A stretch of DNA of 64,000 nt from Escherichia coli (GTDB lineage: Bacteria > Pseudomonadota > Gammaproteobacteria > Enterobacterales > Enterobacteriaceae), in the NCBI RefSeq assembly GCF_003334355.1, contig NZ_QOWP01000001.1; one strand, written 5' to 3'. A program made the position numbers. This document shows, piece after piece, positions 45,401 to 45,875 of this stretch. Numbering within the stretch: position 1 is the first letter of the stretch; every line of letters begins with the position of its first letter.

Positions 45401-45875
45401 TACCCGGGATACGACCAGCAGCGTAGGTACGCTCCTGATAGTTAACGGTCAGTGGGAAGAAGTCCTGACCTGGTTTGGCTTTTTTCTGGCCAACAACGGT
45501 AACGAATACCGCGGTGTCATCCATGCTAACCATAACAGCGGCAGTAGCCTGACGAGCCATCATGCCGGTTTCCAGAGTCACGGTGTGTTGGCCGTACTGG
45601 AATTTACGAACGATCGGATTAAGCAATGTAATATCCTTTCTCTTTCTTAGACAGTACCTTACGGCACTGGTGTTAATACCCGATCTTCTGCGCATCCTCG
45701 CGACTAATGACAACCCTAACCCAGCTCTATGTGGGTAAAGCCTCTCATTAGCCGCGCGAACCTCTGCAACGGAAGATCATTCATAGCAACAATACATTAG
45801 TTTCCAGTGAATTGCTGCCGTCAGCTTGAAAAAAGGGGCCACTCAGGCCCCCTTTTCTGAAACTCGCAAGAATTA

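Follow-up and report, generated by a model that had tools for sequence, protein, structure and literature searches.

Overlapping control elements on the two strands of the Escherichia coli rpsO-pnp spacer: the pnp leader hairpin, the UUG start codon and the antisense RNA SraG

The layered autoregulation of PNPase, a major exoribonuclease, is a textbook example of control after transcription. The layers are an RNase III hairpin, PNPase itself, CsrA, the antisense RNA SraG and a weak start codon. Transcripts from promoter P1 either end at the terminator t1 or read through into pnp, and P2, located downstream of t1, yields a monocistronic pnp mRNA (PMC5029454). RNase III cuts the leader hairpin (hairpin R) at two sites, RIII1 and RIII2, 39 and 77 nt downstream of P2, in vivo as well as in vitro (PMC5029454). 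Once RNase III has cut, the processed 5' end is removed in a PNPase-dependent step, RNase E attacks, and CsrA is also able to repress pnp translation (PMC5029454).

By cRT-PCR, SraG is a 216-nt primary transcript that starts 42 nt upstream of its formerly annotated end, and Northern blots together with cRT-PCR detect forms of 216 nt and ~190 nt (PMC5029454). Its promoter overlaps the pnp start region, and the transcript ends at t1, the bidirectional rpsO terminator; a mutation of the -10 that lies near the pnp Shine-Dalgarno (SD) sequence without touching it abolishes the RNA (PMC5029454). SraG keeps the 30S subunit off pnp mRNA through its first 42 nt: the 30S toe-print is lost with full-length SraG but not with SraG-S, which lacks these nucleotides, and pnp mRNA levels are likewise lowered by the full-length RNA only (PMC5029454). 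RNase III gains new sites in vitro when SraG and pnp form a duplex, and SraG alone is cut at the mirror positions of RIII1 and RIII2 (PMC5029454). The effect in vivo is small, with pnp mRNA and PNPase rising ~1.3-fold in the -10 mutant (PMC5029454). A literature search found no later mechanistic work on SraG beyond this study (Fontaine et al., 2016; PMC5029454).

We analyzed a stretch of 64,000 nucleotides of E. coli DNA, referred to here as the window. The rpsO-pnp spacer occupies positions 45627-45872 (246 bp), and its limits are exact, running from the rpsO stop codon to the pnp TTG. The coding sequence of rpsO (ribosomal protein S15; ORF list and RefSeq) lies on the minus strand at 45873..46142 (MG1655 3311415-3311684) and closes with a TAA at 45875-45873. 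RefSeq places pnp on the same strand at 43491-45626 (MG1655 3309033-3311168), followed downstream, again on that strand, by nlpI in the MG1655 annotation. Between 45580 and 45900 the window is 100% identical to K-12 MG1655 over 321 bp, and MG1655 coordinates are obtained by adding 3,265,542 to those of the window. The segment 45400-46200 was matched in all 5,426 complete E. coli genomes, with at least 99% identity in 5,407 of them. This spacer is a well-studied locus at which the hairpin, the UUG start and SraG are all real and all already known, and its 246 bp almost certainly carry overlapping control elements on both strands.

Other known RNA elements are present in the window as well: the S15 leader (46086-46200), the rimP leader (52482-52582), the greA leader (63269-63390) and RNase P RNA (2368-2744), all on the minus strand, together with tRNAs at 52674-52747 and 56533-56616. 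A 68-bit match to naRNA4, a REP-derived nucleoid-associated RNA (Rfam RF02564), is found between rbfA and infB (47713-47783, minus strand) and also at the equivalent place in E. albertii.

An earlier note on this DNA had proposed that pnp begins with TTG and that an upstream extension hides this start. Both points hold: the 711-aa RefSeq product starts at a TTG that maps to 45626, and the mechanically called ORF continues as far as a TTG at 45713, for a length of 740 aa in place of 711. The start codon (TTG, UUG in the mRNA; 45624..45626, minus strand) is supported by RefSeq and homologous loci, and it was placed experimentally by a toe-print 15 nt from the UUG and by a TTG-to-TGA mutant (PMC5029454). 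Seven nucleotides upstream of the 45626 TTG stands the SD sequence AAGGA (45634..45638, minus strand), a block conserved in 79 species; in their alignment, A169 and G171 of the SD region are invariant. We fetched 120 Enterobacterales loci by a pattern from the pnp N-terminus, and the codon homologous to the start is TTG in 116, GTG in 4 and ATG in none. All four GTG starts belong to Providencia.

Translation from the upstream in-frame TTG at 45713 would yield a 740-aa protein and would make most of the "leader" coding. The frame is indeed open from 45713, but such a start has next to no probability, and we rejected it. The RefSeq start, the published toe-print and the TTG-to-TGA mutant all point to 45626 (PMC5029454), no other part of the leader is as poorly conserved as the upstream stretch (37.5% mean identity), whose indels are not multiples of three, and the conserved AAGGA precedes the 45626 TTG. 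Initiation at the SD-preceded TTG is the reading we adopt throughout.

Within the leader, the earlier note had pointed out a long imperfect stem at 45695-45760 of the kind that RNase III cleaves for autoregulation. The predicted pairs run from 45761 to 45694, and the fold it had proposed as a check, 45690-45765 on the minus strand, gave a dG of -36.0 kcal/mol (z = -5.7), with 0 of 200 shuffles as stable. When the whole spacer was folded on the minus strand (-96.1 kcal/mol, z = -6.4; again 0 of 200 shuffles as stable), the stem extended to 45778..45682 with 37 pairs. This 97-nt hairpin R (45682..45778, minus strand; core 45694-45761) contains a 12-bp perfect helix in which 45756-45745 pair with 45699-45710. 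The window thus holds a long imperfect stem-loop, more stable than chance, between P2 and the SD. Its stable fold, its covariation (see below) and the reported sites RIII1 and RIII2 (PMC5029454) bear out its description as an RNase III substrate involved in autoregulation. The pnp leader has no Rfam family of its own, and no minus-strand match turned up at the hairpin position. The fold also predicts a small hairpin between hairpin R and the SD (45652..45669, minus strand), opposite the 5' end of SraG; all 7 of its pairs show changes on both sides, but only 63% of its cells are paired, and the alignment there is loose.

The positions of the RNase III cuts and of the P2 start are estimates. Taking the two sites as 38 nt apart and letting the cut 12-bp helix keep 2 nt overhanging at the 3' side, we back-calculated cuts on the minus strand at about 45746/45745 for RIII1 and about 45708/45707 for RIII2 (overall 45707..45746). 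These positions, combined with the reported distances from P2, would put the P2 start near 45784-45787, in a promoter region at 45784..45825 on the minus strand (hairpin geometry and PMC5029454). The ATGTATTGTTGC block in this region is 74% conserved across the 79 species. A consensus promoter scan called only rpsO P1 (46279-46251, minus strand), and with the -10 hexamer of P1 ending at 46251, the estimated positions agree with the published length of 500 nt for the P1-to-RIII1 fragment. Because P2 and the SraG promoter were not picked up by the scan, both were placed from the literature and from geometry. An extra predicted hairpin at 45785-45819 (minus strand) spans the P2 region and could form only in P1 read-through transcripts.

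We extracted the rpsO-pnp spacer from 115 loci and aligned the last 180 nt of 78 sequences (<93% mutual identity) together with the window, covering 79 species (alignment A2). The arm cores GCGCGGCTAATGAGAG and TGTCATTAGTCGCGAGGATG of hairpin R are 95-98% conserved, and the apical part is 53% conserved, with compensating changes. When the E. coli structure was projected on A2, 84.8% of cells were standard pairs, compared with 35-47% when the partners were slid by 1-3 columns. Both sides have changed in 23 of 44 pairs. The covariation score of 0.227 was reached by 0 of 500 shuffles, and slid partners scored at most 0.109. The structure is therefore conserved with compensatory changes in 79 species, and covariation, compensating changes and conserved arm cores together indicate that hairpin R is a selected structure rather than a chance fold.

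Several loci in the collection deserve separate mention. Large insertions lie in or beside the apical part of the hairpin in Enterobacteriaceae Fux382, Dickeya oryzae and Xenorhabdus hominickii, and in insertion-bearing loci the conserved arms are up to 110 nt apart, versus ~31-40 nt in most species. Affinibrenneria salicis NZ_VYKJ01000001.1 has two rpsO-pnp loci 288 kb apart on one scaffold, whose spacers and 700 nt upstream are 100% identical, reflecting either an operon duplication or a scaffolding artefact. An assembly labelled "Martelella alba", an alphaproteobacterial genus (NZ_SZPQ01000001.1), carries an Enterobacterales-type spacer with the conserved hairpin; this spacer is close to those of Biostraticola and Acerihabitans, and the assembly is probably mislabelled or contaminated.

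The earlier note had mentioned SraG as reported on the opposite strand of the spacer and had left its ends unplaced. This proved right, as both the Rfam match and the MG1655 sraG annotation lie on the plus strand, and the ends can now be set at 45641 (primary 5' end) and 45856 (terminator). Rfam RF00082 matches 45685-45856 (plus strand; cmscan) over the full model, positions 1-177, with 164.3 bits against a gathering score of 50 (E = 5e-30). This match corresponds to the older, shorter annotation, and the older 174-nt form has its 5' end near 45683. The 216-nt primary transcript (sraG, b4449; MG1655 3311183-3311398) spans 45641..45856 on the plus strand, as transferred from the MG1655 annotation through the 100% identical alignment and as defined by cRT-PCR and Northern blots (PMC5029454). 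The RNA thus scores above the threshold, lies between rpsO and pnp on the strand opposite to the two genes, is identical to its K-12 counterpart and ends at a Rho-independent terminator on the plus strand.

That terminator (45830..45856) is bidirectional and intrinsic according to the terminator scan, the minus-strand fold and the published work (PMC5029454). On the minus strand it is rpsO t1, with the tail TTTTTT, and on the plus strand it is the SraG terminator, with the tail CTTTT. The scan reported a plus-strand terminator-like site at 45835-45851, consisting of the stem GGGGCC/GGCCCC followed by CTTTTCTG. It listed the 45830-45856 hairpin on the plus strand only, despite the 6-T tail on the minus strand, which looks like a quirk of the tool. 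The A-run upstream of the terminator stem was tried as a proxy for antisense termination and proved uninformative, with 2-5 A in most species.

The 5' end of SraG at 45641 is a T, in agreement with the published start-site base (PMC5029454). The hexamer TAATAT at 45629..45634 (plus strand) ends 7 nt upstream of this position and sits opposite the interval between the pnp SD and the UUG. Given these two features and the published -10 mutant, TAATAT is probably the -10 element of the SraG promoter, although the exact hexamer is an estimate. No good -35 is visible upstream. Of the 120 loci, only 37 have TAATAT at the homologous position. Hexamers resembling a -10 (at least 4 of 6 matches) are present in 117 of 120 species, as expected by chance in an AT-rich SD-to-start spacer, and for this reason we did not accept them as a sign of promoter conservation. 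Small ORFs within SraG (14 aa from ATG 45707, 22 aa from ATG 45729 and 22 aa from GTG 45670) were also rejected as coding, since none has an SD. In the 14-aa ORF, the ATG and the TAG belong to the two arms of the palindrome CTAATGA...TCATTAG, with a variable apical loop between them.

Cleavage, SraG transcription and repression are taken here from published experiments (PMC5029454), and combining them with the features above gives the following scheme, which is almost certainly correct in outline. On the minus strand, rpsO transcripts end at t1, and the pnp leader is made from P2 or by P1 read-through. The leader folds into hairpin R, both arms are cut by RNase III, and the small base-paired 5' fragment is taken away by PNPase, leaving a processed mRNA open to decay and to CsrA repression; by this route PNPase restrains its own synthesis. 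The weak UUG serves as the start codon. On the plus strand, a promoter with its probable -10 between the pnp SD and start drives the 216-nt SraG, which ends at the rpsO terminator read in the opposite direction and has full complementarity to the pnp leader. Its first 42 nt (45641..45682, plus strand; coordinates from the annotation), which the comparison of SraG with SraG-S showed to be needed for pnp repression (PMC5029454), pair with the leader 15 to 56 nt upstream of the UUG. They act there beside the SD by blocking the 30S subunit, and the duplex adds RNase III sites. As a net outcome, the amount of PNPase is adjusted modestly.

Either strand of a stem can form the helix, but a G·U pair in one becomes an A·C mismatch in the other. 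Across the 79 species, the cells of hairpin R include 385 G·U pairs in the pnp sense and 97 A·C. Pair positions with G·U in at least 8 species number 12, versus 4 with A·C, all of the latter in loosely aligned basal helices. Wobble pairing is almost invariant at two positions, 45752·45703 (G·U in 77 of 79 species) and 45759·45696 (U·G in 76 of 79). In each of the 79 species the hairpin folds more stably in the pnp sense than in the SraG sense (means of -44.6 and -29.8 kcal/mol, respectively); the corresponding values in E. coli are -46.1 and -33.4 kcal/mol. Full-length SraG folds at -48.9 kcal/mol (z = -2.7). The small addition of this analysis is that G·U pairs and fold energies favor the pnp-sense strand in all 79 species. 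On the basis of this comparison, the hairpin structure appears to be maintained for the pnp mRNA, with SraG inheriting a weaker mirror image.

This asymmetry bears on whether SraG is largely a by-product, arising where a conserved pnp-sense hairpin, an AT-rich SD-to-start spacer that resembles a -10 and a symmetric rpsO terminator coincide, with a regulatory role that is marginal or limited to some lineages. The G·U excess by cells and by positions, the greater stability of the pnp-sense fold in every species and the scarcity of TAATAT among the homologous loci would all fit such an origin, as would the ~1.3-fold effect in vivo and the lack of a phenotype upon SraG overexpression (PMC5029454). 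We nevertheless regard it as unlikely, because pnp mRNA and PNPase do increase in the -10 mutant, the 30S toe-print disappears specifically with SraG, the SraG -10 is the site of an older autoregulation mutation, and the abundance of SraG changes with temperature and with the stringent response (PMC5029454). SraG is also present in the ProQ and Hfq interactomes, and a cis-antisense RNA pairs with its target without needing sequence conservation. Modest regulation of pnp by SraG in E. coli is thus the reading we retain.

How far this regulation extends beyond E. coli is a separate matter. Rfam SraG matches above threshold were found in 20 of 20 diverse genera, from Escherichia to Providencia, Xenorhabdus, Arsenophonus and Hafnia. 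Opposite the essential 5' 42 nt of SraG lies the most divergent part of the leader, at 37.5% identity; poor conservation there costs a cis-antisense RNA nothing, yet it gives no evidence of selection on SraG. Given this low conservation and the strand asymmetry, the distant matches may reflect the pnp leader and not a small RNA that is made there. Defining a functional SraG as one with a promoter at the pnp start region and an efficient antisense terminator, we tentatively raise the possibility, on balance doubtful, that selection across Enterobacterales acts on the pnp-sense hairpin and not on SraG, that the Rfam matches in 20 genera mirror conservation of the leader, and that functional SraG may be restricted to Escherichia, Salmonella and genera close to them. 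In that case RF00082 annotates the small RNA too widely, and a cis-regulatory family for the pnp leader is missing from Rfam. The case also calls for caution in annotation: where an antisense RNA is the mirror image of a conserved mRNA hairpin, a covariance model of it scores well wherever the hairpin is kept, whether or not the RNA is made.

Alternatively, the chief targets of SraG might be other mRNAs, reached in trans with the help of Hfq or ProQ, its effect on pnp being secondary. Hfq binds SraG with a sub-nanomolar Kd, and SraG was reported to regulate YPK_1206-1205 in Yersinia pseudotuberculosis (PMC5029454); the RNA is also listed among ProQ-associated antisense RNAs. However, microarrays, RNAup predictions and ten tested candidates revealed no trans target in E. 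coli, and deletion of hfq changed neither SraG levels nor pnp repression (PMC5029454). A mainly trans-acting role is accordingly quite improbable, and we continue to view SraG as a cis-antisense RNA of pnp.

Compared with described systems, hairpin R is the known RNase III hairpin of the pnp leader, at the same locus and with cuts 39 and 77 nt downstream of P2, and it differs in no respect. The plus-strand RNA is SraG (PsrO; RF00082, b4449), sharing sequence, position, terminator and 216-nt extent with the MG1655 annotation. The Rfam model represents only the older 174-nt form and omits the 5' 42 nt that are essential according to the 2016 study (PMC5029454). RliD of Listeria and ref41 of Enterococcus are antisense RNAs at rpsO-pnpA, in the same genomic position opposite pnp; no sequence similarity to SraG is reported for them, and they are set beside it by published description. 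Like GadY, which acts at gadX-gadW, and AsflhD, which acts at flhD, SraG forms a perfect duplex with the 5' region of its target, leads to RNase III cleavage and tunes expression modestly. Unlike these two RNAs, SraG is the mirror image of a hairpin that RNase III cuts in its own right, and its promoter lies inside the translation-initiation region of its target.
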